This document shows, one piece after another, positions 20,580-50,556 of a DNA stretch of 64,000 nt. The stretch is from Escherichia coli. GTDB taxonomy: Bacteria; Pseudomonadota; Gammaproteobacteria; Enterobacterales; Enterobacteriaceae. Both the position numbers and the translations under genes were made by a program. Where the stretch lies: NCBI RefSeq assembly GCF_003019035.1, contig NZ_CP027447.1. The stretch is one strand, 5' to 3'. The notes under the pieces are model-generated. The model saw only the letters and a program-made list of their open reading frames with translations. It ran no database searches and was not told the origin of the DNA. Every line of letters begins with the position of its first letter. Positions within the stretch are counted from its first letter, which is position 1.

Positions 20580-20596
20580 TGCTTACTCTCTTAATT

Positions 20597-20610: not shown

Positions 20611-20725
20611 GTTATTATTAACATACTCCTTCATTTCCACAGCGGCAAGGATTGAAAAGTAACAACATCTTCTTCGTCACTGAAAAACCGCTATGATAGC
20701 GACAGAGAATTAGCCCGGAGTTTAC

Positions 20726-21133
20726 ATGGCGTTACGAAATAAAGCGTTCCATCAGTTACGACAGCTTTTTCAGCAGCATACGGCCCGCTGGCAGCACGAG
20801 TTACCTGACCTGACCAAACCACAGTACGCGGTGATGCGCGCCATTGCTGATAAGCCTGGTATCGAACAGGTGGCACTGATAGAAGCAGCAGTCAGCACCA
20901 AAGCAACGCTGGCAGAAATGTTGGCAAGAATGGAAAATCGTGGCTTAGTCAGACGTGAACATGACGCCGCTGATAAGCGGCGACGCTTTGTCTGGCTGAC
21001 TGCCGAAGGAGAAAAGGTACTTGCTGCGGCGATACCGATTGGCGACAGTGTGGATGAGGAATTTTTGGGGCGTTTGAGTGGAGAAGAGCAGGAGCTGTTT
21101 ATGCAGCTGGTGCGCAAGATGATGAGCAAATAG
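20726..21133 (+). CDS. MarR/SlyA-family transcriptional regulator (135 aa)
   Basis: Winged-helix MarR-like sequence, divergent from decarboxylase genes. Confidence 0.8.
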   Translation: MALRNKAFHQLRQLFQQHTARWQHELPDLTKPQYAVMRAIADKPGIEQVALIEAAVSTKATLAEMLARMENRGLVRREHDAADKRRRFVWLTAEGEKVLAAAIPIGDSVDEEFLGRLSGEEQELFMQLVRKMMSK

Positions 21134-21207
21134 GATGTTGATTGCCGGATGGGACGCTGACGTGTCTTATCCAGGCGACAAAACACACCGACTCCCAAAT
21201 AAAAGAA

Positions 21208-21240
21208 AAAGGCCAGCCTCGCTTGAGACTGGCCTTTCTG
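21208..21240 (-). terminator. rpoS rho-independent terminator (AAAGGCCAG...CTGGCCTTT hairpin followed by T-run on minus strand)
   Basis: Inverted repeat with adjacent A-run on plus strand just downstream of rpoS stop. Confidence 0.55.
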
Positions 21241-21252
21241 ACAGATGCTTAC

Positions 21253-22245
21253 TTATTCGCGGAACAGCGCTTCGATATTCAGCCCCTGCGTTTGCAGGAT
21301 TTCGCGCAAACGGCGCAGGCCTTCAACCTGAATCTGGCGAACACGTTCACGGGTGAGGCCAATTTCACGACCTACATCTTCCAGTGTTGCCGCTTCGTAC
21401 CCCAGCAAACCGAATCGACGTGCCAGTACTTCACGCTGTTTGGCGTTCAGCTCGAACAGCCATTTGACGATGCTCTGCTTCATATCGTCATCTTGCGTGG
21501 TATCTTCCGGACCGTTCTCTTTTTCATCGGCCAGGATGTCCAGCAACGCTTTTTCGGAATCACCACCCAGCGGGGTGTCTACCGAGGTAATGCGCTCGTT
21601 AAGACGAAGCATACGGCTGACGTCATCAACTGGCTTATCCAGTTGCTCTGCGATCTCTTCCGCACTTGGTTCATGGTCCAGTTTATGGGACAACTCGCGT
21701 GCGGTTCGCAGGTAAACGTTCAGCTCCTTTACGATGTGAATCGGCAAACGAATAGTACGGGTTTGGTTCATAATCGCCCGTTCGATCGTCTGGCGAATCC
21801 ACCAGGTTGCGTATGTTGAGAAGCGGAAACCACGTTCCGGGTCAAACTTCTCTACCGCGCGGATCAGCCCCAGGTTGCCCTCTTCGATAAGATCCAGCAA
21901 AGCCAGACCACGATTGCCATAACGGCGGGCAATTTTTACCACCAGGCGCAAGTTACTCTCGATCATCCGGCGGCGAGAGGCAACATCTCCACGCAGTGCG
22001 CGACGCGCAAAATAAACTTCTTCTTCGGCCGTTAACAGTGGTGAATAACCAATCTCACCAAGGTAAAGCTGAGTCGCGTCCAGCACACGCTGTGTGGCTC
22101 CCTGCGATAACAGTTCCTCTTCGGCCAAATCGTTATCACTGGGTTCCTCTTCTACTAAGGCCTTTTCGTCAAAAACCTCAACTCCGTTCTCATCAAATTC
22201 CGCATCTTCATTTAAATCATGAACTTTCAGCGTATTCTGACTCAT
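21253..22245 (-). CDS. rpoS: RNA polymerase sigma factor RpoS (sigma-38, 330 aa)
   Basis: Sigma-70 family regions 2-4; start [14 protein letters not shown]; codon 33 is GAG (Glu), no amber. Confidence 0.97.
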
Positions 22246-22307
22246 AAGGTGGCTCCTACCCGTGATCCCTTGACGGAACATTCAAGCAAAAGCCTGGTTC
22301 CGCCGAT

Positions 22308-23447
22308 TTATCGCTGCGGCAAATAACGCAGCGGGTTTACGGATTTCCCCTTGTAACGAATTTCAAAATGCAAGCGTGTTGAACTGGTTCCGGTGCTACC
22401 CATGGTTGCTATTTTTTGCCCCGCCTTCACTTCTTGTTGTTCCCGGACCAGCATTGTGTCGTTATGGGCGTAGGCACTCAGGTAATCATCATTATGTTTG
22501 ATGATAATCAGATTACCGTAGCCGCGCAGCGCGTTACCGGCATAAACAACGCGGCCATCTGCAGTCGCGATAATTGCCTGTCCTTTGCTGCCTGCGATAT
22601 CAATCCCCTTGTTGCCCCCCTCAGAAGCGCCAAAGGTTTCGATCACTTTGCCCTCAGTCGGCCAGCGCCAGGTGGAGATAGGCGTACTGGTTGATGTACT
22701 GCTGACAGTCGGCTCGGTTGTGCTTGCTGTTGGTACCGTTACAGGCGCTGTGACCGTGGTCGCAGTTGGCTTGTTGTTCGGCAACATTTTGTTAGCACTC
22801 TGTTCACCCGAAGACTCAGAATACGTAATTGTCGGTTGCGACGCAACAGCAACGGTGGAATTTTGTGCAGGCTTGATCACAACTCCTTGCTCTGCTGCGT
22901 CGGCCTGGGTAATGGCATTTCCGCCAGTGATTGGCGTACCGGAAGCATTCCCCACCTGTAAGGTCTGACCGACGTTCAGCGCGTATGGTGCCTGAATATT
23001 GTTGCGCTGAGCAAGGTCACGGAAATCGTTGCCAGTAATCCAGGCGATATAGAAAAGTGTGTCGCCTTTTTTCACTGTATAGGTACTGCCGCTATAACTG
23101 CCTTTCGGAATGTTCCCATACTGACGGTTATAGACGATGCGTCCGTTTTCCATCTGTACCGGCTGCTGAGCTACTGGCTGCACCGGCTGGATTTGCGGTT
23201 GTTGAGTGGCCTGAATTTGTGGCTGCTGTACCGGCTGAATTTGCGGTTGCTGCGCTGTAGACGTCGTCCCCATTTTCGGCGGCGGCGTAATCAACATACC
23301 AGAATTGGTATTTGCAGGCGCATTGCCATTAACGGAGCTGACCGGGGCCGGTGGATTTGAAGTGTCAGAACAGCCTGCCAGCCATAGCGAAACCAGTGAC
23401 AAAGCCGCAATGCGGCGAACGGTGAATTTTGGGCTTCCCGCGCTCAT
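22308..23447 (-). CDS. nlpD: Murein hydrolase activator lipoprotein NlpD (LysM + LytM/M23 domains, 379 aa)
   Basis: Lipobox LAGC, LysM, C-terminal M23-like domain. Confidence 0.95.
23154..23252 (-). repeat. In-frame imperfect tandem repeat inside nlpD encoding QQPQIQ(P/A)(V/T) units
   Basis: Three ~24-27-bp repeats visible in DNA and protein. Confidence 0.6.
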
Positions 23448-23586
23448 TTATCCCCCAGGAAAAATTGGTTAATAACCAGTGACATAATTACCGTGCAAGG
23501 CACCATACTGAACACTGGAAAAGATGTTCACGATACGCTGACCTGCGGCAAAATAACCAGGAAAAATCCAGGTATTTCCTCACGTT

Positions 23587-24948
<1,362 letters not shown>

Positions 24949-24968
<20 letters not shown>

Positions 24969-25998
24969 AATCACCTGTTGTGTTGATAAGTTCCCTGACA
25001 ACGCTGGTTGCAAAACTACCCGCCGGAAGCCAGAAACGGATTTCTACGGTGACGTCATCCCACCAGTTCCAGCTTAATTGTTGCGGATACAGCAGCATCG
25101 CTCTGCGCGCGGCTTCAACTTTTTCGCGCACCAGTAAGGCTTGTAATTCAGTTTCTGCGGCGACAGCTGCTTGTTCGAATGCCAGCGCTTCACGCTGAGT
25201 TCCCCATTCGCCACTGCCCGGCAATGCGGCGGTTATCATTAGCTCTTTATCGTTGACGCGACACTGTAATTCCGCCAGTTCTTCGGTGGTTGCGACAAAC
25301 CAGCTACCACGTCCGGCTAATTGTAGCGCATCGCCGTCAACAACTTGATTAACGTCTGCTTTTTTGAGGCGCTCAGCAACAATCTGATTAAACAACGCAC
25401 TGCGGGCTGCCGACAACCAAAAACTCCGTTTATTGCGATCGCGCACCGGAGTATTGGTTTGCGCCCAGCGCAGCGCGCCCTGCAAGTTGCTACCGCCAAT
25501 CCCAAAACGTTGGGCACCGAAGTAGTTCGGTACACCTTTTACGCAAATATCGATCAGACGTTGTTCAACGTCATCGCGATTGCTCACTTCGCGTAGTACC
25601 AGGGTAAAGGCGTTACCTTTCAGCGCCCCTAAACGCAGCTTGCGCTTGTGCCGCGCATACTCCAGCACCTGGCAGCCTTCCAGTTGAAAGGCGCTCAGAT
25701 CGGGCATCTCTTTGCCCGGCACGCGAGCGCATAACCACTGTTCCGTAACAGCATGTTTGTCTTTTTGCCCAGCGAAGCTGACTTCACGGGAATGAATTTT
25801 CAGGAATTTCGCCAGTGCATCCGCCACAAAACGGGTATTGCAGCCGTTTTTGAGGATTCTAACCAGAATATGCTCACCTTCACCATCAGGCTCAAAGCCC
25901 AAATCTTCCACCACCACAAAGTCTTCCGGATTGGCTTTCAGCAGCCCGGTGCCTTGCGGTTTACCGTGGAGGTAAGTGAGATTATCAAACTCAATCAT
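24949..25998 (-). CDS. truD: tRNA pseudouridine-13 synthase TruD (349 aa)
   Basis: 349 aa, conserved context. Confidence 0.93.
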
Positions 25999-26474
25999 TT
26001 TGTTGCCTTAATGAGTAGCGCCACCGCTTCACAGGCAATCCCTTCCCCACGTCCGGTAAATCCAAGTTTTTCCGTAGTAGTGGCTTTCACGTTAACATCA
26101 TCCATATGGCAGCCGAGATCTTCGGCAATAAACACGCGCATTTGTGGAATGTGCGGCAACATCTTCGGTGCCTGAGCGATGATAGTGACATCGACGTTGC
26201 CAAGGGTATAACCCTTCGCCTGAATACGACGCCAGGCTTCGCGTAGCAGCTCGCGGCTGTCGGCACCTTTAAATGCCGGATCGGTATCCGGGAACAGCTT
26301 GCCGATATCTCCCAGCGCCGCCGCGCCAAGCAATGCATCGGTCAACGCATGGAGCGCCACATCGCCATCAGAATGCGCCAGCAATCCTTTTTCGTAAGGA
26401 ATGCGTACGCCACCAATGATAATTGGGCCTTCACCGCCAAAGGCGTGTACGTCAAAACCGTGTCCAATTCGCAT
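25995..26474 (-). CDS. ispF: 2-C-methyl-D-erythritol 2,4-cyclodiphosphate synthase IspF (159 aa)
   Basis: [12 protein letters not shown]... His/Asp zinc motif. Confidence 0.96.
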
Positions 26475-27184
26475 TATGTATTCTCCTGATGGATGGTTCG
26501 GGTGAGGTAAAACTCGGCCAGTGCCAAATCTTCCGGGCGCGTGACTTTAATGTTATCCGCGCGGCCTTCGACCAACTGCGGATGAAATCCGCAATATTCC
26601 AGCGCCGAGGCTTCGTCGGTAATGGTAGCGCCTTCATTTAGAGCGCGCGTCAGGCAGTCATGTAACAGCTCACGAGGGAAAAATTGCGGCGTCAGCGCGT
26701 GCCATAAGCCGTTGCGATCAACGGTATGAGCAATGGCATTTTTGCCCGGTTCGGCACGTTTCATCGTATCGCGCACTGGTGCGGCGAGGATCCCCCCCGT
26801 GCGGCTGGTTTCGCTCAACGCCAACAGGCGCGCGAGGTCATCCTGATGCAGACAAGGACGAGCGGCGTCATGCACCAATACCCACTGCGCGTCGCCAGCG
26901 GCTTTCAGACCTGCCAGCACGGAATCGGCACGCTCTTCACCACCATCAACAACCGTGATTTGTGGATGATTCGCCAGAGGAAGTTGTGCAAAACGGCTAT
27001 CGCCAGGACTTATGGCAATGACGACATGTTTCACCCGGGGATGCGCCAGCAGCGCATGCACCGAGTGTTCAAGAATGGTTTGATTACCGATTGAGAGATA
27101 TTGCTTAGGACATTCCGTTTGCATTCGACGGCCAAATCCGGCCGCCGGAACCACGGCGCAAACATCCAAATGAGTGGTTGCCAT
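26474..27184 (-). CDS. ispD: 2-C-methyl-D-erythritol 4-phosphate cytidylyltransferase IspD (236 aa)
   Basis: PAAGFGRRM motif, 236 aa, overlaps ispF. Confidence 0.96.
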
Positions 27185-27202
27185 GTTAATTCCTGGGCTG
27201 AT

Positions 27203-27514
27203 TTATCGATTGTTTTGCCCCGCAGACTGTGCGCGCTTCGACGCGTCAGGCACCAGACGATAAAAAGTTTCGCCCGGCCTGGTCATGCTGAGTTCATTAC
27301 GCGCACGCTCTTCGAGCGCCTCCTGGCCGCCATTGAGATCGTCAATTTCGGCAAAAAGTTGATCGTTTCGCGCTTTAAGTTTCGCGTTTGTAGCTTGCTG
27401 TGCCGCCACATCATCATTGACGCGGGTATAGTCATGTATACCGTTCTTACCGAACCACAGCGAATACTGTAGCCAGACCAGAATAGCCAGCAACAGCAGC
27501 GTTAGTTTACCCAT
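27203..27514 (-). CDS. ftsB: Cell division protein FtsB (103 aa)
   Basis: TM helix + coiled coil, 103 aa. Confidence 0.93.
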
Positions 27515-27707
27515 CCTGCCCCCTGAAAAACGGCATCATCATCCCATGCATCCGAAGACGACTCTACATCCTCTGTTGGGGATACCGCGACAACGCGGGC
27601 AAATGTACCACATTTGTCCATTGTTACGTATACCCAGGGCGTGCAGAACATAATCTCATTATTAGTTACGGTTTGAATTATGAACAGAGGAGACAAGAAA
27701 GTACAAA

Positions 27708-28031
27708 TTAGCCCAGTAGCCACATAAACAGTGCGCCAAACATAATGCCTACTGTCACCAGGGTGAAAACAATACTGTAGCGTAGCTTTCCGTCCATCAA
27801 TGAATGCAGCGCAATCCCCACCACTACCGCGACAGGCATCAGTGCCAGAAAGAAAGGCCAGGTGTAGATAAAGAAGAACAGCGTGTTAGAGCCATAAATC
27901 AACATCGGCATCGCCAGCGCAAATAACCATGAGATAAAACCGACCACGGCACCAGGCAGTGACCATGTGGTTTCTTCATCCTCAGTAAGGCTGTCGTTAT
28001 TTGTTAGTGTAATGTTATGGCTATTACGCAT
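27708..28031 (-). CDS. ygbE: Small inner-membrane protein YgbE (DUF3561-like, 107 aa)
   Basis: 107-aa hydrophobic ORF in conserved position. Confidence 0.8.
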   Translation of the reverse strand: MRNSHNITLTNNDSLTEDEETTWSLPGAVVGFISWLFALAMPMLIYGSNTLFFFIYTWPFFLALMPVAVVVGIALHSLMDGKLRYSIVFTLVTVGIMFGALFMWLLG

Positions 28032-28080
28032 ATTTGATCCTGTTACTTTGACGAACCGGGCATGGAAACCCGGTGGTGTC

Positions 28081-28686
28081 TCAGGATCTGATAATATCGT
28101 TCTGTCTCAACAGATCTAATAATTGCTGTACCAAATTTGTTACTAATTGTTCACCATTGAGATGAATTTCTGCCGATTCAGGCGCTTCGTAAACGGAATC
28201 TATTCCCGTAAAGTTGCGCAGTTCACCGGCACGCGCTTTCTTATATAAGCCTTTTGGATCGCGGGCTTCGCAAATCGCCAGCGGTGTATCGACAAACACT
28301 TCGATAAAGCGCCCTTCTCCTACGCGTTCGCGAACCATCTGGCGTTCGGCGCGGTGTGGCGAGATAAATGCGGTCAGCACCACCAGTCCGGCTTCAACCA
28401 TCAAATTCGCCACTTCACCGACGCGACGGATATTTTCTTTACGATCGGCATCGCTAAAACCGAGATCGCTGCATAATCCGTGGCGAACATTGTCGCCATC
28501 CAGCAGATACGTACTGACGCCAAGTTTATGTAACGCCTCCTCCAGCGCCCCCGCGACGGTTGATTTACCGGAACCAGAGAGGCCGGTAAACCACAGCACA
28601 ACACCACGATGACCGTGGTGCTGTTCGCGTTGTTGCGGAGTTACTGGGTGGCTATGCCAGACGACGTTTTCGTCATGCAGCGCCAT
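28081..28686 (-). CDS. cysC: Adenylylsulfate kinase CysC (201 aa)
   Basis: P-loop GLSGSGKST. Confidence 0.96.
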
Positions 28687-30113
28687 TATTTATCTCCCAG
28701 TAAATCGCGCGCACCCCAATGCGGGAAATGGCGGCGAACCAGGGCATTCAATTCCAGTTCGAATGCACTGAATTGAGATGGCGCAGCAGTTGCCTGGCTA
28801 ACTGGCTCGTGCACCATACCGGCACCTACGGTCACATTGCTCAGGCGATCGATAAAAATCAGCCCACCGGTCACCGGATTTTGCTGATAACGATCTAACA
28901 CCAGTGGCTCGTCAAAAGTGAGATCCACCAGGCCGATGCCGTTCAGCGGCAGGTTTTCAACTTCGCGTTGGGTAAGGTTATTGATATCAACCTGATAACG
29001 AATGCCATCAACACGAGCACGCGTCTTCTTACCGGCAATTTTGATGTCGTAACTCTGGCCCGGGGAAAGCGGCTGTTCCGCCATCCATACCACATCCACC
29101 GACGCGCTCTGCACAGCCGGTAACGCTTCGTCTGCCGCCAGCAGCAGATCGCCACGGCTGATGTCGATTTCATCCGTCAGCACCAGGGTGATCGCTTCTC
29201 CGGCAAAGGCTTCTTCGCGATCACCATCAAAAGTCACGATCCGCGCGACGTTTGATTCCACACCAGAGGGCAGCACTTTTACACGTTGCCCGACTTCCAC
29301 GCGACCGGATGCCAGCGTTCCGGCGTAGCCACGAAAATCGAGATTCGGACGGTTAACGTACTGCACCGGGAAGCGCATTGGCTGAGCATCCACCACTCGC
29401 TGGATCTCCACGGTTTCCAGCACTTCGAGCAGTGTCGGACCGCTGTACCACGGCATACTTTCACTTTGCGAAGCCACGTTGTCGCCTTCCAGTGCGGAGA
29501 GCGGCACAAAGCGGATATCCAGATTACCCGGCAGCTGCCCGGCAAAAGTCAGATAATCTTCACGAATACGGGTGAACGTCTCTTCACTGTAATCCACCAG
29601 ATCCATTTTGTTGATCGCCACGACCAGATGTTTGATCCCCAACAGTGTGGAGATAAAACTGTGACGACGGGTTTGATCGAGCACGCCTTTACGGGCATCG
29701 ATCAGTAAGATCGCCAGTTCACATGTCGATGCGCCAGTCGCCATATTGCGGGTGTACTGCTCGTGCCCCGGGGTGTCGGCGATAATAAATTTACGCTTCT
29801 CGGTAGAGAAATAGCGGTAGGCCACATCAATAGTGATGCCCTGTTCGCGCTCAGCTTGCAGGCCGTCCACCAGCAGTGCCAGATCCAGCTTTTCGCCCTG
29901 GGTGCCGTGACGCTTACTGTCGTTATGCAGCGATGAGAGCTGATCTTCGTAGATTTGGCGGGTATCGTGTAGCAGGCGACCAATCAGGGTACTTTTGCCG
30001 TCATCGACGCTACCACAGGTCAGAAAACGCAGCAGGCTTTTATGTTGTTGCGCAATCATCCAGGCTTCGACGCCGCCTTCATTGGCGATTTGTTGTGCAA
30101 GTGCGGTGTTCAT
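28686..30113 (-). CDS. cysN: Sulfate adenylyltransferase subunit 1 CysN (GTPase, 475 aa)
   Basis: GTP-binding motifs [18 protein letters not shown]. Confidence 0.96.
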
Positions 30114-30114
30114 C

Positions 30115-31023
30115 TTAAAAATACCCCTGACGTTTTTTCAGCTCCATAGACCCCGCCTGGTCGCGGTCAATCACGCGGCCCTGACGTTCACTGGTGGTGG
30201 AAACCAGCATCTCTTCGATGATCTCCGGCAGTGTTTGTGCATTTGACTCCACCGCACCGGTCAGCGGCCAGCAGCCCAGCGTACGGAAACGCACCATCCG
30301 TTTTTTAATCACTTCGCCCGGTTGCAGGTCGATACGGTTGTCATCAATCATCATCAACATACCGTCGCGTTCCAGAACCGGACGTTCCGCAGCGAGATAC
30401 AGCGGCACAATGTCGATATTTTCCAGCCAGATGTATTGCCAGATATCCTGCTCGGTCCAGTTAGAGAGCGGGAAGACGCGGATGCTTTCGCCTTTGTTAA
30501 TTTGCCCGTTGTAGTTGTGCCACAGCTCCGGGCGCTGATTTTTCGGATCCCAGCGATGGAAGCGGTCACGGAAAGAGTAGATTCGCTCTTTAGCGCGGGA
30601 TTTCTCTTCGTCACGACGTGCGCCACCGAAGGCGGCATCAAAACCGTATTTGTTCAGCGCCTGTTTCAGGCCTTCAGTTTTCATAATATCGGTATGTTTC
30701 GCGCTGCCGTGTACGAATGGATTAATCCCCATCGCCACGCCTTCCGGGTTTTTATGCACCAGCAGCTCGCAGCCGTAGGCTTTCGCCGTACGATCGCGGA
30801 ACTCATACATCTCGCGGAATTTCCAGCCGGTATCGACATGCAGCAACGGGAAAGGCAGCGTACCTGGATAAAACGCCTTGCGCGCCAGATGCAGCATGAC
30901 GCTGGAATCTTTACCGATAGAGTAGAGCATCACCGGATTTGAGAATTCTGCAGCCACCTCGCGAATAATGTGGATGCTTTCCGCCTCCAGTTGCCGCAGG
31001 TGAGTAAGTCGTTTTTGATCCAT
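30115..31023 (-). CDS. cysD: Sulfate adenylyltransferase subunit 2 CysD (302 aa)
   Basis: PAPS reductase-like fold, 302 aa. Confidence 0.96.
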
Positions 31024-31275
31024 AACCGTTCCTTTGCAATACCGCTATTTTCTTGCCATCAGATGTTTCGACTATAGGGAGCGCAGGAGAACGAATGAAA
31101 TTACCAATTAGAATGAGTAGTTCCTTAACGGAATAACGATTTGGCAAAGCTAATATCAAAAAGTGCTTAAGGCACCGGATTTCGGGCGTTTAGGAAGATT
31201 TGAAATTGTTTTAGCGCATCGGCAGTTTCATACTATGGCGGTAAAAAAAATTTGCATGGTATTTAAGGACTCACT

Positions 31276-32313
31276 ATGTTTTCCGCATTGCGCCACCGTA
31301 CCGCTGCCCTGGCGCTCGGCGTATGCTTTATTCTCCCCGTACACGCCTCGTCACCTAAACCTGGCGATTTTGCTAATACCCAGGCACGACATATTGCTAC
31401 TTTCTTTCCGGGACGCATGACCGGAACTCCAGCAGAAATGTTATCTGCCGATTATATTCGCCAACAGTTTCAGCAAATGGGTTATCGCAGTGATATTCGG
31501 ACATTTAATAGTCGGTATATTTATACCGCCCGCGATAATCGCAAGAGCTGGCATAACGTGACGGGAAGTACGGTGATTGCCGCTCATGAAGGCAAAGCGC
31601 CGCAGCAGATCATCATTATGGCGCATCTGGATACTTACGCCCCGCTGAGCGATGCTGACGCCGATGCCAATCTCGGCGGGCTGACGTTACAAGGAATGGA
31701 TGATAACGCCGCAGGTTTAGGTGTCATGCTGGAATTGGCAGAACGCCTGAAAAATACGCCTACCGAGTATGGTATTCGATTTGTGGCGACCAGCGGCGAA
31801 GAGGAAGGGAAATTAGGCGCTGAGAATTTACTCAAGCGGATGAGTGACTCCGAAAAGAAAAATACACTGCTGGTGATTAATCTCGATAACTTAATTGTTG
31901 GCGATAAATTGTATTTCAACAGCGGTGTAAAAACCCCTGAAGCAGTAAGGAAATTAACGCGCGACAGGGCGCTGGCAATTGCGCGTAGTCATGGAATTGC
32001 CGCAACGACCAATCCGGGTTTGAATAAAAATTATCCGAAAGGCACTGGGTGTTGTAATGACGCAGAAATATTCGACAAAGCGGGCATTGCTGTACTTTCG
32101 GTTGAAGCGACTAACTGGAATCTTGGGAATAAGGATGGTTATCAGCAACGCGCAAAAACAGCCGCATTCCCTGCAGGAAATAGCTGGCATGACGTAAGAC
32201 TGGATAATCAACAACATATTGATAAGGCACTTCCTGGAAGAATAGAACGTCGCTGCCGTGACGTTATGCGGATAATGCTACCTCTGGTGAAGGAGCTGGC
32301 GAAGGCGTCTTGA
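31276..32313 (+). CDS. iap: Alkaline phosphatase isozyme conversion aminopeptidase Iap (M28 family, 345 aa)
   Basis: Signal peptide, M28 metal ligands, position adjacent to CRISPR array. Confidence 0.9.
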   Translation: MFSALRHRTAALALGVCFILPVHASSPKPGDFANTQARHIATFFPGRMTGTPAEMLSADYIRQQFQQMGYRSDIRTFNSRYIYTARDNRKSWHNVTGSTVIAAHEGKAPQQIIIMAHLDTYAPLSDADADANLGGLTLQGMDDNAAGLGVMLELAERLKNTPTEYGIRFVATSGEEEGKLGAENLLKRMSDSEKKNTLLVINLDNLIVGDKLYFNSGVKTPEAVRKLTRDRALAIARSHGIAATTNPGLNKNYPKGTGCCNDAEIFDKAGIAVLSVEATNWNLGNKDGYQQRAKTAAFPAGNSWHDVRLDNQQHIDKALPGRIERRCRDVMRIMLPLVKELAKAS

Positions 32314-32394
32314 TGGGTTTGAAAATGGGAGCTGCGAGTTCTACCGCAGGGGCGGGGAATTCTAAGTGATATCCATCATCGCATCCAGTGCGCC

Positions 32395-33094
32395 CGGTTT
32401 ATCCCCGCTGGCGCGGGGAACACTTGCAGTAGCACTTCAGTTCTGTTTTTGTCACCGGTTTATCCCCGCTGGCGCGGGGAACACGCCTGATAGCGCCTCC
32501 AGCCTTCGCCCTGGTGCGGTTTATCCCCGCTGGCGCGGGGAACACTGCATAGCTTTGGCTTCTTCTTTAACGGACGCCGGTTTATCCCCGCTGGCGCGGG
32601 GAACACAGTACCACTGTTTTTTCTTCGGTGCCCAGCCACGGTTTATCCCCGCTGGCGCGGGGAACACGTTTACATATTTATACCTACACGCTCAATCGAC
32701 GGTTTATCCCCGCTGGCGCGGGGAACACCCGTTTTCGATTGAACAGAAAGATTTCAACACCGGTTTATCCCCGCTGGCGCGGGGAACACAATACAGACCC
32801 GTTGTACGGTTTTTGCGAGCACGGTTTATCCCCGCTGGCGCGGGGAACACTTGGAAATCACCTCCCCGATCTCCGCGCTGTCCGGTTTATCCCCGCTGGC
32901 GCGGGGAACACCCCTCGGCAAAAATGCCTTTTTCCTCGTCGGTCGGTTTATCCCCGCTGGCGCGGGGAACACCACGGGCCAGACGGTAGCAACAATTTTA
33001 CGGCCGGTTTATCCCCGCTGGCGCGGGGAACACCAAAACGGAAGTGCCAGTATTGCCAGAATCACCGGTTTATCCCCGCTGGCGCGGGGAACAC
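32395..33094 (-). CRISPR. CRISPR array 1 (type I-E): 12 identical 29-bp repeats CGGTTTATCCCCGCTGGCGCGGGGAACAC (plus-strand reading), 11 spacers of 32 bp; leader at high-coordinate end
   Basis: Repeat starts at 32395, 32456, 32517, 32578, 32639, 32700, 32761, 32822, 32883, 32944, 33005, 33066; perfect 61-bp periodicity. Confidence 0.98.
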
Positions 33095-41938: not shown

Positions 41939-42091
41939 CTACTTCTTCGATTCGTAAGCGAGAACCGCCTTAAACTCCATACCACGTTCTCTGATACTCA
42001 ACTCACACAACGAGTCGCCTACCATCAGCGTGAATCCCAGTACTGTAAAACACAGCACTATGATTGCCACAAGGGCATATTTTGTCAGCAT
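41939..42091 (-). CDS. hokX: Hok/Gef-family type I toxin (50 aa), likely hokX of the hokX-sokX locus
   Basis: Own translation [52 protein letters not shown] helix + conserved LCE...AYES Hok signature; GGAGG RBS; below 60-aa cutoff so absent from ORF track. Confidence 0.8.
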
Positions 42092-42355
42092 GTCTTGCCT
42101 CCCTGCAAAGAAGAGACTAACATTCGAATTGTTTGGGTTCGAACGCTGGCCTCAGGTTGATAGAAATATCGCCTGGGGCTTTTGTCCATCTGGAACCTCG
42201 CGAATGCTTAACGCCAGACAGCCTCAAGCACCCAACGCCATTCTATACCTGTTAATTCTTCCAACGACGTTCACGTTTAAAATCAGGAATGCTGCTCGCA
42301 AAATAAAAACGCCCCCATCATTTCTGACAGAGGCGTTTAATTTATCCGGCAATAT

Positions 42356-43090
42356 TTACCCTTCGTGTAATCCACATTCCCTTTTTAAGCCAAAGAAACG
42401 CGTTTCTTCTTCCGCCATGCCGGGTTCCCATTTACGGGTTGTATGGGTATCGCCCACCGATAAATATCCTTCATCCCATAATGGGTGATATTTCAGGCCA
42501 TGTTTTTGCAGGTACTGATAAATAGTTCGGTTATCCCAGTCGATAATCGGCAACACTTTAAATACACCACGCTGGATAGCCAGCACCGGTAAATTAGCAC
42601 GGCTGCCGGATTGTTCACGGCGCAGGCCAGCAAACCAGGTTTGCGCATTCAGTTCTTTCAGCGCCCGGTTCATCGGTTCGACTTTGTTGATGTCATTGTA
42701 CTTTTCAATGCCTTCAACGCCCTGCTCCCACAGTTTGCCGTAGCGTGCTTCCTGCCAGGCGGCGCTTTCAGTAGCACGGTACACTTTCAGGTTGAGCTTG
42801 AGTTTATCCGTTAACTCGTCAATAAAGCGGTAGGTTTCCGGGAACAGATAACCGGTATCGGTGAGGATCACCGGAATATCCGGGTGAATCTGATTCACCA
42901 GATGCAGGCTCACCGCCGCCTGAATGCCGAAGCTGGAAGAAAGCACATATTCACCGGGCAGATTATCCAGCGCCCAGGCAACGCGGCCTTCAGCGTCCAG
43001 TTTTTCCAGTTCGGCGTTAGTTTCCGCCAGCGCCAGAATGCGATCTACCTTCGGCAGTTCGTTCAGGGCGTTTAGATCGAGTTTGGACAT
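42356..43090 (-). CDS. cysH: Phosphoadenosine phosphosulfate reductase CysH (244 aa)
   Basis: Starts [15 protein letters not shown]-terminal ECGLH motif. Confidence 0.96.
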
Positions 43091-43111
43091 AGATTCCTCA
43101 CTGTTTGCCTT

Positions 43112-43150
43112 GCCTGATGCGACGCTCACGCGTCTTATCAGGCCTACAAG
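43112..43150. repeat. REP (repetitive extragenic palindromic) element between cysI and cysH
   Basis: GCCTGATGCGACGC...GCGTCTTATCAGGCCTACAAG, typical REP palindrome. Confidence 0.6.
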
Positions 43151-43163
43151 ACCGGGCTGATGG

Positions 43164-44876
43164 TTAATCCCACAAATCGCGCGCCGGATCGAGCACCGGG
43201 CGAATGATGCCCGCACGCACCGTAAAGTCGCCGAAGCCTTCACCCGCTTCGCGCTCTTTCGCCCAGCGCCCTATCAGTTCATCAAGCGACGCCAGGATTT
43301 CCGGTTCGGTGATGTTTTCTTTATACATCCGTGGGATACGTGTCCCAATGCGGTTGCCGCCAAGATGCAGGTTGTAGCGACCCGGCGCTTTACCCACCAG
43401 GCCCACTTCCGCCAGCATCGCGCGACCACAACCGTTCGGGCAGCCTGTTACACGCATCACGATATGCTCATCGCTGACACCATGTTTCGCCATTAAATTA
43501 TCGATGTTGTCGATAAAAGACGGCAGGAAACGCTCCGCTTCCGCCATCGCCAGCGGGCAAGTCGGGAATGACACGCAGGCCATTGAGTTTTCACGCTGCG
43601 GCGTGACGGCATTCATTAACCCGCTTTCTTTGGCGATCTTCTCGATCTTCGCTTTCTCGCTTTCCGGCACGCCGGCGATGATCAGATTCTGGTTCGCCGT
43701 AATGCGGAAATCACCTTTGTGGATCTTCGCGATCTCCAGCAAGCCGGTTTTCAGCGGACGCCCCGGATAATCAAGGATGCGACCATTTTCGATAAACAGC
43801 GTCAGGTGCCAGTTATCATCAATGCCCTTAACCCAGCCAATACGATCGCCGCGTCCGGTAAACTCATACGGGCGAATCGGCTCGAATTTGATCCCCGCGC
43901 GACGCTCAACTTCCGCTTTAAACGTCTCAACCCCTACGCGCTCCAGCGTGTATTTGGTTTTGGCATTTTTACGATCGGTTCGGTTACCCCAGTCACGCTG
44001 AGTTGTCACGACGGCTTCCGCCACCGCCAGCGTATGCTCCAGCGGCAGATAGCCAAACTCACTCGCCGTGCGGGCGTAGGTTTTCTTGTTGCCATGTTCG
44101 ATGGAAAGCCCACCGCCCACCAGCAGGTTAAAGCCCACCAGCTTGCCGTTTTCGGCGATCGCCACGAAGTTCATGTCGTTGGCGTGCAGATCGATATCGT
44201 TCTGCGGCGGGATCACTACCGTGGTTTTGAATTTACGCGGCAAATAAGTCTGACCGAGGATCGGTTCTTCATCGGTGGTGGCGACTTTTTCCTGATCGAG
44301 CCAGATCTCCGCATACGCGCGGGTACGCGGCAGCAGATGTTCAGATATTTTCTTAGCCCATTCATAGGCTTCCGCGTGCAGCTGCGACTCGTAAGGGTTC
44401 GAGGTGCAGAGTACGTTACGGTTCATGTCGTTAGCAGTCGCCAGCGCATCAAGACCGACCGAGTGCAGCATCTGGTGCACCGGTTTGACGTTCTTTTTCA
44501 GAATGCCGTGGAACTGAAACGTCTGGCGGTTGGTCAGGCGAATGCTGCCATAGATGGTGTTTTCACCGGCAAATTTGTCTATCGCCTGCCACTGTTTGGT
44601 GGTGATCACGCCACCCGGCAGACGGCAGCGCAACAGCATCGCGTGGCGCGGCTCCAGCTTCTGTTCAGCACGTTCGGCGCGGATGTCGCGGTCATCCTGC
44701 TGATACATGCCGTGGAAGCGGATCAGCAGGAAGTTGTCGCCCTTAAAGCCGCCGGTCAGACCGTCGTTTAAATCTTCCGCAATGGTGCCGCGCAGGTAGT
44801 TGCTTTCAAGCTTCATGCGCTCGGCGTCTGTCAGTTTTCCTTCGACCACTAAAGGCCCTGGATGCTTTTCGTTCAT
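43164..44876 (-). CDS. cysI: Sulfite reductase hemoprotein beta subunit CysI (570 aa)
   Basis: 570 aa, siroheme/4Fe-4S Cys cluster. Confidence 0.96.
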
Positions 44877-46675
44877 TAGTAGACATCTCGCTGATAACGG
44901 CGCTCTACGCGCAGCTCACTTAAAAATTCATCCGCCGCTTCGGTGTCCATGCCACCAAATTCGGCAATCACTTCCAGAAGTGCCTGTTCAACGTCTTTCG
45001 CCATGCGATTAGCGTCGCCGCAGACATAAATGTGGGCACCGTCATTGATCCAGCGCCACAGCTCTGCGCCCTGTTCGCGCAGTTTGTCTTGTACGTAAAC
45101 TTTTTCTTTTTGATCGCGCGACCAGGCAAGATCGATGCGGCTCAATACGCCTTCTTTCACGTAGCGCTGCCACTCCACCTGGTAGAGGAAATCTTCCGTA
45201 AAGTGCGGGTTGCCAAAGAACAACCAGTTTTTACCCGGCGCTTCGTCAGCAGCACGTTGCTGCATAAAGGCGCGGAACGGCGCAATACCGGTGCCTGGGC
45301 CAATCATAATCACCGGGGTTTCCGGGTTGGCTGGCAGGCGGAAGTTGTCGTTATGTTCGATAAAGACGCGAACTTCGCCCTCTTCTTCCACACGATCCGC
45401 GAGGAAACTAGAGGCACCACCGGCACGGGCGCGGCCTTCCACGTCGTAACGCACCACACCAACGGTGACGTGTACTTCGTTCTCGACTTCCGCCTGCGAG
45501 GAGGCGATGGAATACAGGCGCGGCGTCAGCGGGCGCAGCAAGTTAATGAGGGCTTCAGCGTCAAGCTGTGCCGGAGAGAAACGCACCATGTCAACAATCG
45601 GCGTCGTCGCGGCGTAATGCTGCAACTTCGCTTTATCGCCCACCAGCGGCAGCAGCGTTTCGCTGCGGGTAAGCGTGGCATAGTTCTCAACAATGTTGGC
45701 GGTGTTGACGGTCAGTTCGAAGTGCCACTGTAGCGCTTCGTTCAGAGGCAACGTTTTGCCCTCAACGGTGACAGGTTCATCGCCTTTCAGCCACAGCAGT
45801 TCGACAAGTTCTTTCACCAGTGCCGGATCGTTCTGATACCAGACGCCCAGCGCGTCACCCGGCTGGTAACGCAGGCCCGAGTCACCTAAGTCAATTTCGA
45901 TATGGCGAACGTCTTTTTCAGAGTTACGCCCGGTAATTTTCTGGTTAACAGAGAGGCTCGCCACCAGCGGCGCGTCTTTGCTATACGGGCTGGTGTGGAT
46001 TTCATTTACCGTGCCAGTAGCGACGGATTGCGAAGGTGCCGCGACAGGCGCACGCGATTTAAGCGCATCAACCACGCGGGCGCGCCACTCGCTGGCAGCG
46101 GCCTGATATTCAACATCGGCATCGACACGGTCGAGCAGGCGTTCACCGCCCAGTTCCGCCAGCTTGCTGTCAAAATCTTTCCCGGACTGGCAGAAAAATT
46201 CATAAGAGCTATCGCCGAGGCTAAACACGGCAAATGCGGTGTTTTCCAGCTTCGGCGCTTTTTTGGAGAACAGGAACTTATGCAGCGCGACGGCTTCTTC
46301 CGGCGGTTCCCCTTCCCCTTGCGTTGACGTCACCACGATAAGCAGTTTTTCGCTGGCGATTTGTTTGAATTTATAGTCGCCCGCGTTCACCAGCTTAACG
46401 TTTAGTTTTGCCGCTAATAAGTCATCGCGTAACGCTTCAGCAACCCGGCGCGCATTGCCGGTTTGCGAGGCGGAGATAATAGTTATACCCGGCATTTCTG
46501 CGGCGGGCGCTGGCGTCGCTGCAAGCGCAGCAGGCTGCTGGTTGAGCACGCCCCAGAAATAGCCAGAAACCCAGGCAAGCTGGGTGGGAGTTAAATCGGT
46601 CGTGGCCGCCTGAAGGCGTGCCAGTTGCTCCGGGTTCAACGGAAGCAACGCGGAAGGTGAGACCTGTGTCGTCAT
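44876..46675 (-). CDS. cysJ: Sulfite reductase flavoprotein alpha subunit CysJ (599 aa)
   Basis: Flavodoxin + FAD/NADPH reductase domains, 599 aa. Confidence 0.96.
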
Positions 46676-46990
46676 GCGTCGTTATGTTCCAGTAAGCAAA
46701 GCTGTTTCTGCGCCCTGTCAGCGCCCATAAAACAGAAGAGAAGGTAAGGTTAACGGGGTGAACGGTGTGGATTAAAGACGGGATAGCGATAACTAATAAC
46801 CAAATCGACTAACCTGTTTTAGCAATAGTCTTTAACAACAAAATAGATTACTCAACCCAATGAAAAACAAGTGAATTTAGCCAATCATTAAGATAAATCA
46901 GCGATTTTGCGCAACAAAGTCGTTTTAGATAATGCGAAAAAACAGCCTTTCCGGTACTCTACGGCGGTTTTATCGTCCTGTAGAGAAATT

Positions 46991-47356
46991 ATGATGTCCA
47001 CCACGTTATTTAAAGATTTCACCTTCGAAGCCGCTCACCGCTTACCACACGTCCCGGAAGGACATAAATGTGGTCGCCTGCACGGGCATTCCTTTATGGT
47101 GCGACTGGAAATTACCGGGGAAGTCGATCCGCATACGGGCTGGATTATCGATTTCGCTGAACTGAAAGCAGCGTTTAAACCAACCTATGATCGCCTCGAT
47201 CACTATTATCTCAATGATATTCCTGGCCTGGAAAACCCGACCAGCGAGGTTTTAGCAAAATGGATTTGGGATCAGGTTAAACCGGTTGTTCCGCTGTTAA
47301 GTGCGGTGATGGTGAAAGAAACCTGCACCGCAGGTTGCATCTATCGCGGCGAATGA
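46991..47356 (+). CDS. queD: 6-carboxy-5,6,7,8-tetrahydropterin synthase QueD (121 aa)
   Basis: Starts [18 protein letters not shown], conserved CxxxHGH motif. Confidence 0.92.
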
Positions 47357-47433
47357 TAAGAGTGTGTCGGCGGTCAATTTCCCTTAAGTAACGCTATGTT
47401 AGGGTGTTGCGCTCTGGATATCTGGGGCATGAC

Positions 47434-48705
47434 ATGGAAGACGACTGCGACATTATTATTATTGGTGCCGGTATAGCAGGCACCGCTTGTGCTTTACGCT
47501 GCGCGCGGGCAGGTTTATCCGTTCTGTTACTGGAACGCGCTGAAATTCCCGGCAGTAAAAACCTTTCCGGCGGGCGTTTATATACCCAGGCGCTCGCGGA
47601 ACTCCTCCCTCAGTTTCACCTGACCGCGCCTCTTGAACGACGCATCACTCACGAAAGTCTTTCTCTGCTAACGCCGGATGGCGCAACGACGTTTTCCAGC
47701 TTACAGCCCGGCGGTGAATCCTGGAGCGTATTACGTGCACGGTTCGATCCGTGGCTGGTTGCCGAAGCCGAAAAAGAAGGTGTCGAATGCATCCCTGGTG
47801 CGACGGTAGATGCGCTGTATGAAGAAAACGGCAGGGTGTGTGGTGTCATTTGTGGTGACGATATTCTCCGCGCCCGTTATGTGGTGCTGGCAGAAGGTGC
47901 CAACAGCGTCCTGGCTGAGCGTCACGGGTTAGTGACTCGTCCTGCTGGCGAAGCGATGGCGTTGGGGATCAAAGAAGTGCTGTCGCTGGAAACATCCGCT
48001 ATTGAAGAACGTTTTCATCTGGAGAATAACGAAGGCGCAGCGTTGCTGTTCAGCGGCGGGATCTGTGATGACTTACCCGGCGGCGCATTTCTTTATACTA
48101 ATCAACAAACGCTCTCGTTAGGGATTGTTTGCCCGCTCTCTTCCCTTACGCAAAGTCGTGTTCCGGCAAGCGAGCTGCTGGCTCGCTTTAAAACGCATCC
48201 GGCAGTGCGCCCGCTTATCAAAAACACGGAATCACTGGAGTATGGTGCGCATCTGGTGCCAGAAGGTGGCTTGCACAGTATGCCGGTGCAATACGCCGGT
48301 AACGGCTGGCTGCTGGTGGGCGATGCGTTGCGCAGTTGCGTCAATACCGGAATTTCCGTGCGCGGCATGGATATGGCGCTGACTGGCGCGCAGGCGGCGG
48401 CACAAACGCTGATAAGCGCCTGCCAGCACCGCGAGCCGCAAAATCTGTTTGCGCTTTATCATCACAACGTAGAGCGCAGCCTGCTATGGGATGTTCTACA
48501 ACGTTATCAGCATGTTCCGGCGCTTTTGCAACGCCCTGGATGGTACCGTGCGTGGCCTGCGTTAATGCAGGATATTTCCCGCGATTTATGGGATCAGGGT
48601 GATAAACCTGTTCCACCGCTGCGCCAGTTATTCTGGCGTCATTTACGTCGTCATGGCCTGTGGCATCTGGCGGGCGATGTTATCAGGAGTCTGCGATGTC
48701 TGTAG
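47434..48705 (+). CDS. ygcN: FixC-like FAD-dependent oxidoreductase (ETF-quinone oxidoreductase family, 423 aa)
   Basis: N-terminal dinucleotide-binding motif DIIIIGAGIAG; start chosen at MEDDCD. Confidence 0.85.
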   Translation: MEDDCDIIIIGAGIAGTACALRCARAGLSVLLLERAEIPGSKNLSGGRLYTQALAELLPQFHLTAPLERRITHESLSLLTPDGATTFSSLQPGGESWSVLRARFDPWLVAEAEKEGVECIPGATVDALYEENGRVCGVICGDDILRARYVVLAEGANSVLAERHGLVTRPAGEAMALGIKEVLSLETSAIEERFHLENNEGAALLFSGGICDDLPGGAFLYTNQQTLSLGIVCPLSSLTQSRVPASELLARFKTHPAVRPLIKNTESLEYGAHLVPEGGLHSMPVQYAGNGWLLVGDALRSCVNTGISVRGMDMALTGAQAAAQTLISACQHREPQNLFALYHHNVERSLLWDVLQRYQHVPALLQRPGWYRAWPALMQDISRDLWDQGDKPVPPLRQLFWRHLRRHGLWHLAGDVIRSLRCL

Positions 48706-48956
48706 CCCGTAATCTCTGGCGCGTTGCCGATGCGCCGCACATTGTTCCGGCTGACTCCGTTGAGCGTCAGACGGTACAACGGTTGATTAACGCCTGTCCG
48801 GCTGGTCTTTTTTCGCTCACACCAGAAGGTGACTTACGTATTGACTATCGCAGTTGCCTGGAGTGTGGCACCTGCCGTTTGCTGTGCGACGAAAAAACAC
48901 TACAACAGTGGCGCTATCCACCTTCCGGATTCGGCATCACCTACCGCTTTGGATAA
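48696..48956 (+). CDS. ygcO: FixX-like ferredoxin (86 aa)
   Basis: Cys cluster CLECGTCRLLCD; overlaps ygcN end. Confidence 0.82.
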   Translation: MSVARNLWRVADAPHIVPADSVERQTVQRLINACPAGLFSLTPEGDLRIDYRSCLECGTCRLLCDEKTLQQWRYPPSGFGITYRFG

Positions 48957-48972
48957 ATAACAAGGATAATTT

Positions 48973-49548
48973 ATGTCCCTCTTACACCTGCTCCGCCAGA
49001 ATCCGGTGATTGCTGCCGTTAAAGATAATGCCAGCCTGCAACTGGCAATCGATTCTGAATGCCAGTTTATTTCCGTGCTATACGGCAATATCTGCACCAT
49101 CAGTCAAATCGTCAAAAAGATTAAAAACGCCGGGAAATATGCCTTTATTCATGTCGATTTGCTGGAAGGCGCGTCAAATAAAGAAGTGGTGATTCAGTTT
49201 TTGAAACTGGTGACTGAGGCGGACGGCATTATCAGTACCAAAGCCTCAATGTTGAAAGCGGCAAGAGCGGAAGGTTTTTTCTGTATTCATCGCCTGTTTA
49301 TTGTTGATTCAATTTCGTTTCACAACATTGATAAGCAAGTTGCGCAATCGAATCCGGATTGTATTGAGATCCTGCCAGGCTGTATGCCCAAAGTGCTGGG
49401 CTGGGTGACGGAGAAAATCCGCCAACCGCTGATTGCTGGCGGGCTGGTGTGCGATGAAGAAGATGCGCGTAATGCGATTAACGCGGGTGTTGTGGCGCTT
49501 TCCACCACGAATACTGGGGTCTGGACGTTAGCGAAAAAATTGCTTTGA
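48973..49548 (+). CDS. ygcP: GlpP-family glycerol-3-phosphate-responsive antiterminator-like regulator (191 aa)
   Basis: 191-aa ORF of GlpP/G3P-antiterminator family length and architecture. Confidence 0.8.
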   Translation: MSLLHLLRQNPVIAAVKDNASLQLAIDSECQFISVLYGNICTISQIVKKIKNAGKYAFIHVDLLEGASNKEVVIQFLKLVTEADGIISTKASMLKAARAEGFFCIHRLFIVDSISFHNIDKQVAQSNPDCIEILPGCMPKVLGWVTEKIRQPLIAGGLVCDEEDARNAINAGVVALSTTNTGVWTLAKKLL

Positions 49549-49583
49549 CGGGATAATCGTAACAAGTTGAATTTGGTGTGATT

Positions 49584-49656
49584 TGTAGGCTGCACGCCAC
49601 ATCCGACATTCAGCGCCTGATGCGACGCTTGACGCGTCTTATCAGGCCTACAAGTC
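49584..49656. repeat. REP/BIME element between convergent ygcP and ygcQ
   Basis: GCCTGATGCGACGCTTGACGCGTCTTATCAGGCCTACAAG plus inverted partial copy upstream. Confidence 0.6.
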
Positions 49657-49695
49657 CCCAGGCCAGAACCGTAGGCAGGATCATCCGGCAACACG

Positions 49696-50556
49696 TTATT
49701 GGCAATCTGCGTGAATGTTTGTCACCAGTGCCTCCAGCACCACTTTCCAGTCATCAACCACGCCAACATCTGCCTGTGAAAATACCGCTGCGCTGGCGTC
49801 ATGATTAATCGCCACCACAAACTTGCTATTGCATACGCCCGCCATTAACGCTGCTGCGCCAGAAGCGCCAACAACAATACACACCTCAGGTGCCAGCAGA
49901 TGTCCGGAAATACCAATCACTTTTTCAGCATCAACGCCACCGTTCATCACTCGCGCCCGACTGTAGCCCACTTCGGCTCCCAGCTTTTCTGCCAGCATAG
50001 CGATTTCCTGGTTATCTGCCTCTCCGCCCTGCCCCACCACCAGCACCCGTCTGGCCTCAGCTAATGGGTCACGGGTAACATTTTTCAGATCCTCTGTGCT
50101 AACCAGCCAGTCGGGAAGCGCGCCGGGGACAATGTTCAGTTGCTGCATACCAGAGGGCAATGTGGCGTTTTTCACTGCTCCCGCCTGGCGGGCAAGGGAA
50201 AGGCATAGCGGGCGTTTTTCTGTTTGCAGCGTCGCCGTTAGCGCATTTCCCCAGTGGGATTTGCGCACGCTTACGGTTGAAATATCTAACGAAGTCACCT
50301 GGCAGATGCTTGCACCATGTAAACGCCAGGCCAGCCGTGTCGACAGTTCATCACCAAACGTTCCCGGCGGAAAGAGAACAACGTCCGCTGGCGTTCGCTG
50401 CCACTGTTCCACCAGCGCATCCAGCACCTGTTCCGCCACTACGGGCTGAGGTTCAATCTGCCAGTGTGCCAGGGTACAACCGCTGAAATCCTGTTCTGCC
50501 AGACAGCTCGCTATTGCGGCATTCTCCTGATTTATTGTCACAATTGCGATATTCAT
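49696..50556 (-). CDS. ygcQ: Electron transfer flavoprotein alpha subunit-like (FixB family, 286 aa)
   Basis: ETF alpha C-terminal FAD-binding region; start at MNIAIVTIN. Confidence 0.85.
   Translation of the reverse strand: MNIAIVTINQENAAIASCLAEQDFSGCTLAHWQIEPQPVVAEQVLDALVEQWQRTPADVVLFPPGTFGDELSTRLAWRLHGASICQVTSLDISTVSVRKSHWGNALTATLQTEKRPLCLSLARQAGAVKNATLPSGMQQLNIVPGALPDWLVSTEDLKNVTRDPLAEARRVLVVGQGGEADNQEIAMLAEKLGAEVGYSRARVMNGGVDAEKVIGISGHLLAPEVCIVVGASGAAALMAGVCNSKFVVAINHDASAAVFSQADVGVVDDWKVVLEALVTNIHADCQ

Follow-up and report, generated by a model that had tools for sequence, protein, structure and literature searches.

The locus and its two palindromes

The Escherichia coli contig NZ_CP027447.1 (assembly GCF_003019035.1) carries, within the 64,000-nucleotide stretch analyzed here (the window), two repetitive extragenic palindromic (REP) elements, one in the spacer between cysI and cysH and the other in that between ygcP and ygcQ. 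We studied positions 42300-50300 of the window. This part is 100% identical to E. coli SCU-301 (NZ_CP051751.1), from which its gene annotation was borrowed, and ~98% identical to other E. coli; the annotation was borrowed for 42300-50300 only, and statements about the whole window rest on direct tests. The genes run in the order cas3 (-), hok/sok (-), cysH (-), cysI (-), cysJ (-), queD (+), ygcN (+), ygcO (+), ygcP (+), ygcQ (-), ygcR (-) and ygcS (-), and the order from cas3 to ygcS matches that of K-12 MG1655. The first element, REP1, is situated within the cysJIH transcript, between cysI (43164-44876, minus strand) and cysH (42356-43090, minus strand). The second, REP2, lies between the 3′ ends of the convergent genes ygcP (48973-49548, plus strand) and ygcQ (49696-50556, minus strand).

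43112-43147, minus strand: REP1, a single REP of class z2; the minus (mRNA) strand reads GTAGGCCTGATAAGACGCGTGAGCGTCGCATCAGGC; based on motif matches, alignment to z2, the hairpin and the same site in K-12
49615-49651, minus strand: REP2, a REP of class z2; the minus strand reads GTAGGCCTGATAAGACGCGTCAAGCGTCGCATCAGGC; based on motif matches, alignment to z2, the hairpin and an identical sequence in K-12
43091-43163, minus strand: the cysI-cysH spacer, 73 nt, from the sequence, the annotation and the fold

An original prediction, made from the letters of the window alone, had placed near-identical palindromes at these two junctions, and both are found there, outside the annotated coding sequences. 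Exact copies of the motif GCCTGATGCGACGC are found at 43112 and 49615, each accompanied by an imperfect inverted partner, GCCTGATAAGACGC (43130-43143 and 49634-49647, minus strand). With up to two mismatches allowed there are six matches to GCCTGATGCGACGC where 0.76 would be expected, and six were attained in none of 100 shuffled sequences. The description ‘near-identical’ fits the copies in their arms and CTACAAG tail and fails in the loop. The left arm of 15 nt is identical between the copies (43112-43126 and 49615-49629), and the right arm plus tail agrees at 25 of 26 positions (43128-43153 against 49632-49657, 96%), while the loop is TCAC in REP1 and TTGAC in REP2.

Class, fold and copy number

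E. coli REPs fall into three classes, y (35 nt), z1 (29 nt) and z2 (37 nt), all of which comprise an imperfect palindrome preceded by GTAG and containing a conserved AA/GC mismatch (PMC8266576). Both palindromes of the window are REPs (also termed palindromic units, PUs) of the z2 class. They were compared with one published sequence for each class, taken from PMC11208160, the z2 query being GCCTGATGCGACGCTGGCGCGTCTTATCAGGCCTACG. REP1 is identical to z2 at 34 of 37 positions and REP2 at 35 of 37, which bears out the predicted membership of the REP family; alignment with z1 or y required large gaps and scored 46, against 65 for z2. The GTAG tag lies on the minus strand immediately 5′ of the palindrome, at 43147-43144 in REP1 and 49651-49648 in REP2. 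Both elements fold into a 7-bp outer stem, an AA/GC internal loop, a 5-bp inner stem and a terminal loop of 4 or 5 nt, in the pattern (((((((..(((((....)))))..))))))) with AA opposite GC. The REP1 hairpin on the mRNA strand has a calculated stability of -21.9 kcal/mol (z = -5.35), and REP2 folds on the minus strand (-22.7 kcal/mol, z = -4.85) and almost as well on the plus strand (-22.4 kcal/mol, z = -4.35). Thus every testable defining feature of a z2 REP is present in both copies. The z2 consensus loop is TGG, compared with TCAC in REP1 and TTGAC in REP2, and nothing else of substance separates them from the consensus.

As expected for a dispersed repeat, a 43-nt query spanning REP2 matches 5425 of 5426 complete E. 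coli genomes, the set used for all our counts in the species, and finds at least 40 places in 5108 records (median at least 40 per genome). The z2 REPs of K-12 share the class, the GTAG tag, the AA/GC bulge and the genomic sites of the window copies; REP1 differs there by one inserted T, and REP2 not at all. The K-12 RefSeq feature table used here lists no REP features. An entry in a supplementary table lists K-12 2894809-2894875 as the convergent element ‘REP201’ between ygcP and ygcQ (preprint 10.64898/2026.03.23.713779), and this interval maps to window positions 49586-49652, that is, to REP2 together with a y-type remnant on its left (described below). REP1 and REP2 are therefore already known, as members of a known family at known K-12 sites, and their sequence, structure and context are ordinary. 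Beyond correct annotation, the finding in itself matters little.

When the whole window was scanned for the grammar of GTAG plus palindrome only the two z2 copies were convincing, and no full y-type REP was found elsewhere in it with up to six edits. A degenerate REP-like palindrome lacking GTAG, TGCCGGATGGGACGCTGACGTGTCTTATCCAGGCGAC, lies at 21141-21176, 8 nt past the stop codon (21131-21133) of the upstream open reading frame (ORF). We take this ORF to be the MarR-family gene of SCU-301, after correction for a 69-nt offset, and by the same mapping the spacer is common to the convergent rpoS.

A lone REP and a decayed mosaic

The two elements differ in their surroundings. Both had been labelled as bacterial interspersed mosaic elements (BIMEs) as well as REPs. 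The label does not suit REP1, which is a lone REP; it suits REP2 in a decayed form, as there the z2 unit lies between two y remnants.

49585-49608, plus strand: left y-type REP remnant GTAGGCTGCACGCCACATCCGACA; best class y, 22 of 35 positions with internal gaps; conserved in K-12
49671-49690, plus strand: right y-type REP remnant GTAGGCAGGATCATCCGGCA; both ends of the published y sequence align and the centre is missing, 19 of 35 positions; identical in K-12

The left remnant has its GTAG on the plus strand and is inverted with respect to REP2, the two standing head to head across a 6-nt linker; it has lost ~11 nt internally. The right remnant also has GTAG on the plus strand and stands tail to tail with REP2 across a 19-nt linker. 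Its central 15 nt are deleted, and 5 nt separate its end from the stop codon of ygcQ. The alternation y remnant (+), z2 (-), y remnant (+) is correct for a BIME, with both y units internally deleted. REP2 thus remains intact in the middle of a y-z2-y mosaic that has decayed, and K-12 shows the same state.

The arrangement around REP2 resembles BIME-2, in that the z2 unit has an oppositely oriented y-like unit on either side, joined to it by a short linker. It departs from BIME-2 in that the y units lack 11-15 central nt, so that no full REP hairpin is possible in them. REP1 departs further, having no partner in E. coli, whereas in other Escherichia species this spacer is occupied by an intact mosaic of three REPs (z2-y-z2 or z1-y-z2). 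We also considered BIME-1, a y-z1 pair with an L motif containing a site for integration host factor (IHF), and rejected it; the REPs are z2 and not z1, and the head-to-head linker of 6 nt is too short for the BIME-1 L motif.

The spacer between ygcP and ygcQ is 147 nt, bounded by the stop codons of ygcP (49546-49548) and ygcQ (49696-49698). On the other side of the region the cysI stop codon is at 43164-43166; the GTAG of REP1 starts 16 nt past it and the stem 20 nt past it, and the end of the stem is 12 nt from the Shine-Dalgarno sequence of cysH.

Conservation within E. coli and between species

How well are the two elements kept? A single uninterrupted match covers the REP1 site in 5423 of the 5426 genomes, and the REP2 site is covered over at least 80% of its length in 4813. 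Across nine diverse E. coli the outer stem, GTAG and flanks of REP1 are invariant, and one extra A (on the mRNA strand) is present in K-12 and one other of the nine. The sole substitutions among them (within 43120-43136; compared with sequences L088, L089 and L090) are three C-to-U changes on the mRNA strand, located in the inner stem. Each converts a G-C to a G-U pair, so that the sense RNA can still pair at these positions and the antisense strand cannot. These changes hint at constraint at the level of RNA, at three sites only.

The cysI-cysH spacer was also compared across 80 other species of Enterobacteriaceae. About nine of them, including Enterobacter cloacae, Leclercia, a Lelliottia species, Silvania and Huaxiibacter, have a bare spacer of 15 nt that holds just the ribosome-binding site. 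In most of the other species the spacer contains genus-specific REPs, which occur singly, as an inverted pair or in threes. Seven of the spacers (sequences L007, L012, L025, L026, L036, L038 and L085) have, in place of a REP, one or two copies of another GC-rich palindromic repeat, CCCTCTCCC...GGGAGAGGG...GGGTGAGGG; we take it to resemble the ‘box C’ repeat of E. coli. A conserved CATCAGGCAAGGCAAACAGTGAGGAA..ATG comes after the cysH-adjacent REP in Salmonella, Citrobacter, Kluyvera and all Escherichia, and the position is therefore orthologous and old.

Within Escherichia the spacer varies in the number of REPs. Three-unit mosaics of 154-179 nt occupy it in E. albertii, in E. whittamii and in a divergent Escherichia genome (L008). 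The mosaic of L008 is z2-y-z2. To the left of its distal z2 the sequence matches that to the left of REP1, and to the right of its proximal z2 it matches that on the right in E. coli. This mosaic and the single-REP state of E. coli differ by exactly 100 nt. Such a difference would be the expected product of unequal recombination between two direct z2 copies, by collapse in E. coli or by expansion elsewhere. The contrast of mosaic and single REP among Escherichia, and the repeated filling of the spacer in different genera, agree with what has been published on REPs.

Insertion sequences and the RayT transposase

REPs had been described in the original prediction as targets for transposases, and this proves to be true of these two copies. 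Among the insertion sequences (ISs) of E. coli, two have been shown by experiment to be specific for REPs, IS1397 and IS621 (PMC1525189). The natural target of IS621 in REPs is the 11-nt sequence ATCAGGCCTAC, with a CT core (PMC11208160); the window has just two exact copies of it, one in REP1 and one in REP2.

43137-43147, plus strand: IS621 target ATCAGGCCTAC in REP1, exact match
49641-49651, plus strand: IS621 target ATCAGGCCTAC in REP2, exact match
49629-49632, no strand assigned: the TTGA of the REP2 loop, point of insertion of IS1397 and its 4-bp target duplication, from the junctions in sequence L005

In one genome, that of E. coli 7.1994/NIST0056 (L006), IS621 is found in REP1 between cysI and cysH, inserted after GGCCT (GGCCT^AC). 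At one junction ATCAGGCCT is joined to TGTATTATCC and at the other ACAGTATCT to ACAAGACCGGG (in a longer right flank, ACAAGACC), with the CT core at both ends; IS621 has therefore inserted at the CT core of ATCAGGCCTAC. The element, of the IS110 family, occupies L006:4206-5486, where it separates cysI from cysH, and its transposase/recombinase gene is annotated as frameshifted. In REP2 the visitor is IS1397. The match of strain 32-4 to the window stops at 49632, where a 1432-bp IS1397 (IS3 family) is found in the loop with duplication of TTGA; L005 reads GACGC and TTGA, then the element from TGAACTGCACCCC to GGGGTTCAGTTCA, then TTGA and CGCGTC. A junction-specific query for IS1397 in REP2 was covered over at least 80% in 308 of 5426 genomes. 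Both insertions follow the published specificities and add natural examples to them without any difference.

Both REPs are thus landing pads for REP-specific insertion sequences, independent of any role in the host. This accounts for the cysI-cysH and ygcP-ygcQ spacers as hot spots for the insertion of IS621 and IS1397, and REP1 and REP2 explain length polymorphism of the spacers between Escherichia species. IS621 is a bridge-RNA-guided recombinase system, and the two REPs are predictable off-target or ‘wild-type’ sites for bridge recombinase tools based upon it in E. coli.

The z2 REPs are thought to have been spread by the single-copy tyrosine transposase RayT (TnpA_REP); binding and cleavage by this cognate enzyme is a further defining trait of the class. 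A search for a REP-associated transposase gene nearby had been proposed, and there is none: the best tblastn match of K-12 RayT (b0228, 165 aa) to the window has E = 0.28, and the SCU-301 annotation of the region contains no transposase. In K-12 rayT is located at 0.248 Mb and cysH at 2.888 Mb, ~2 Mb apart. By megablast (query L087:1138-1635) rayT is present in 3575 of 5426 genomes as a single copy, at most two. With z2 REPs in 5425 of the 5426, about one third of genomes keep REPs without a closely similar rayT.

A proposed role for the REPs in mRNA

Taken together, the identification of both elements as z2 REPs and a role as a hairpin barrier at mRNA 3′ ends, or as a partial attenuator, form the joint explanation in which we have good confidence. 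Of its parts the identity is observed, and the role is likely. In the cysJIH mRNA the REP1 hairpin, lying just after cysI, would block exonucleases moving 3′ to 5′. REP1 may also attenuate read-through in part, possibly in a Rho-dependent manner, and so raise the ratio of cysJI to cysH expression, while it would still pass the read-through that cysH needs. A consensus scan found no σ70-like promoter in the cysI-cysH spacer. Because sulfate assimilation requires cysH, and the spacer offers that gene no promoter-like site, much of the transcription must continue past REP1. The REP2 palindrome folds on both strands, and for this reason could serve as a common 3′-end hairpin for the ygcP and ygcQ transcripts.

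There are precedents for such roles. A REP inside an operon acts as an mRNA stabilizer or partial terminator between malE and malF. The element REP325 of the yjdMN operon is like REP1 in that it is a REP between co-transcribed genes, placed directly after the upstream stop codon, with a hairpin that lacks a U tract; it differs in being a multi-REP element with experimental evidence, where REP1 is a single REP known here from its sequence. REP325 stabilizes mRNA and also acts as a partial Rho-dependent terminator, and more generally tandem gene pairs that contain REPs have an expression ratio biased toward the upstream gene, while in convergent pairs with REPs both genes are more highly expressed and the REPs often overlap bidirectional terminators (preprint 10.64898/2026.03.23.713779). 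According to a supplementary entry from the same source, the 3′ end of ygcQ contains a region of termination dependent on NusG, at a distance of 85 nt from REP201. On this literature the mRNA-stabilizing role that had been proposed is plausible for both REP1 and REP2. A full-text search of the literature for cysJIH together with REP returned nothing. A REP was reportedly noted at this locus in the 1989 paper on the cysJIH sequence (Ostrowski et al.).

A further possibility concerns translation. REPs that start no more than 15 nt from a stop codon can reportedly stall terminating ribosomes, a finding of Liang, Rudd and Deutscher in 2015. A predicted 5-bp helix extending REP1 starts 11 nt past the cysI stop. 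With the GTAG 16 nt and the stem 20 nt past the stop the spacing is borderline, and we make no claim for stalling.

Four observations weigh against a role in mRNA. The effects of REPs vary widely, and there is no uniform effect on half-life (preprint 10.64898/2026.03.23.713779). About nine of the 80 species of Enterobacteriaceae have the bare 15-nt spacer, so that there the hairpin is dispensable. The decayed y partners of REP2 fit neutral erosion as well as function. Lastly, the polymorphisms in REP1 that preserve pairing by wobble are confined to three sites and could reflect a bias toward transitions.

These points lead to the strongest alternative, that REP1 and REP2 are neutral relics of selfish DNA, fixed by drift after spread through RayT or recombination, with no selected effect on expression. 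The empty spacers and the internally deleted y units are what this would predict, and, with rayT missing from about one third of E. coli genomes, many lineages are currently unable to mobilize REPs; that REP effects depend strongly on context (preprint 10.64898/2026.03.23.713779) is in keeping with it too. Yet REP1 is kept in 5423 of 5426 genomes with an outer stem that is invariant among nine, a REP persists at the ribosome-binding region of cysH across Escherichia, Salmonella and Citrobacter, and in several other genera the spacer is filled by a different palindromic repeat and is not empty. We regard neutrality as possible, though less likely than not. That the cysH-proximal REP has been positively selected as an RNA element, acting as exonuclease barrier and partial attenuator to set the cysJI:cysH ratio from a position 12 nt upstream of the cysH ribosome-binding site, is a narrower proposal that we put forward only tentatively and think rather unlikely as it stands. 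It may fit the occupation of the position from Salmonella to Escherichia, the unrelated palindromic repeats elsewhere and the G-U pairing of the sense strand alone.

The elements might instead act mainly as DNA, through binding of DNA gyrase, DNA polymerase I, HU or IHF, in the organization of the chromosome or in local supercoiling. Binding of these four proteins has been reported for REPs and BIMEs in general (PMC1525189), but neither REP-dependent compaction of the nucleoid nor REP-REP contacts have been found (preprint 10.64898/2026.03.23.713779). The inner-stem polymorphisms of REP1, which keep pairing only in sense-strand RNA, argue weakly in the same direction. IHF binding is a property of BIME-1, the y-z1 pair with its L motif, and not of z2 elements. 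Altogether we consider action at the level of DNA to be improbable.

Might REP1 be an intrinsic (Rho-independent) terminator of a cysJI transcript, with cysH expressed from its own promoter? There is certainly a strong GC-rich hairpin directly after cysI, but the sequences that follow the REP stems, AAGGCAAAC, GCUGAAUG and CUACAAGU, contain no U tract, and a scan for U-tract terminators included neither REP among its 15 terminator-like sites in the window. There is no promoter-like site between REP1 and cysH, a stem only 12 nt from the Shine-Dalgarno sequence leaves little between them, and the sole terminator-like site downstream is past cysH, at 42338-42307. Intrinsic termination at REP1 is very improbable.

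REP1, a lone canonical REP in an essential biosynthetic operon, and REP2, a lone intact REP between convergent genes, could provide convenient test cases from nature in the debate over REP function.

The start of cysH

The presence of REP1 bears directly on the annotation of cysH. The original prediction had noted that the ORF track runs the cysH frame through this REP, and so it does: the mechanical ORF spans 42356..43243 and encodes 295 aa from a GTG start, against the 244 aa of the annotated cysH.

43088-43099, minus strand: the true cysH start, with the Shine-Dalgarno sequence GAGGA at 43095-43099 and ATG at 43088-43090; supported by Prokaryotic Genome Annotation Pipeline (PGAP) annotation of the identical sequence
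43091-43243, minus strand: a spurious 51-codon 5′ extension of the cysH ORF, with GTG at 43243; it crosses REP1 and overlaps the 3′ end of cysI

The GAGGA lies 5 nt upstream of the ATG at 43090, with 4 intervening bases. In nearly all of the 80 species the match to the CysH N-terminus begins at residue 1, and in the ~9 with a 15-nt spacer there is no room for an extension. The extension is spurious because CysH is matched from its first residue despite spacers that range from 15 to 203 nt and are unrelated in content. The idea that REP1 is coding, with cysH starting at GTG 43243 and bearing 51 additional N-terminal residues, has the open frame of 295 aa in its favor and can be dismissed, since the added segment overlaps cysI, has no ribosome-binding site and runs across a repeat of which a genome has 40 copies or more, while a Shine-Dalgarno sequence directly precedes the ATG at 43090 and the alignments begin there. 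Recognition of REP1 thus avoids a false 51-codon extension of cysH in annotation.

Other features of the region

Outside 42300-50300 the window differs from NZ_CP051751.1 by a few indels, with an offset of 384 nt over 385-20269 and of 69 nt over 20259-33094. From 32394 to 64000 the two are 99.3% identical with 57 gap openings overall, none of them within 42300-50300. An Rfam scan of the whole window returned no REP family, the sole return being the sok antitoxin RNA (RF01794, 111 bits), which is full length at 42076-42233 on the minus strand between cysH and cas3. An intact Hok/Gef coding sequence is annotated between the same two genes, where the corresponding position in K-12 is annotated with the small RNA sokX only. 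At approximately 19600-22800 of the window (the mapping is approximate, given the indels) the SCU-301 annotation has a MarR-family regulator and three genes for hydroxyarylic acid decarboxylase subunits beside rpoS, and it also has a type I-E cas operon and two CRISPR arrays in the neighborhood.

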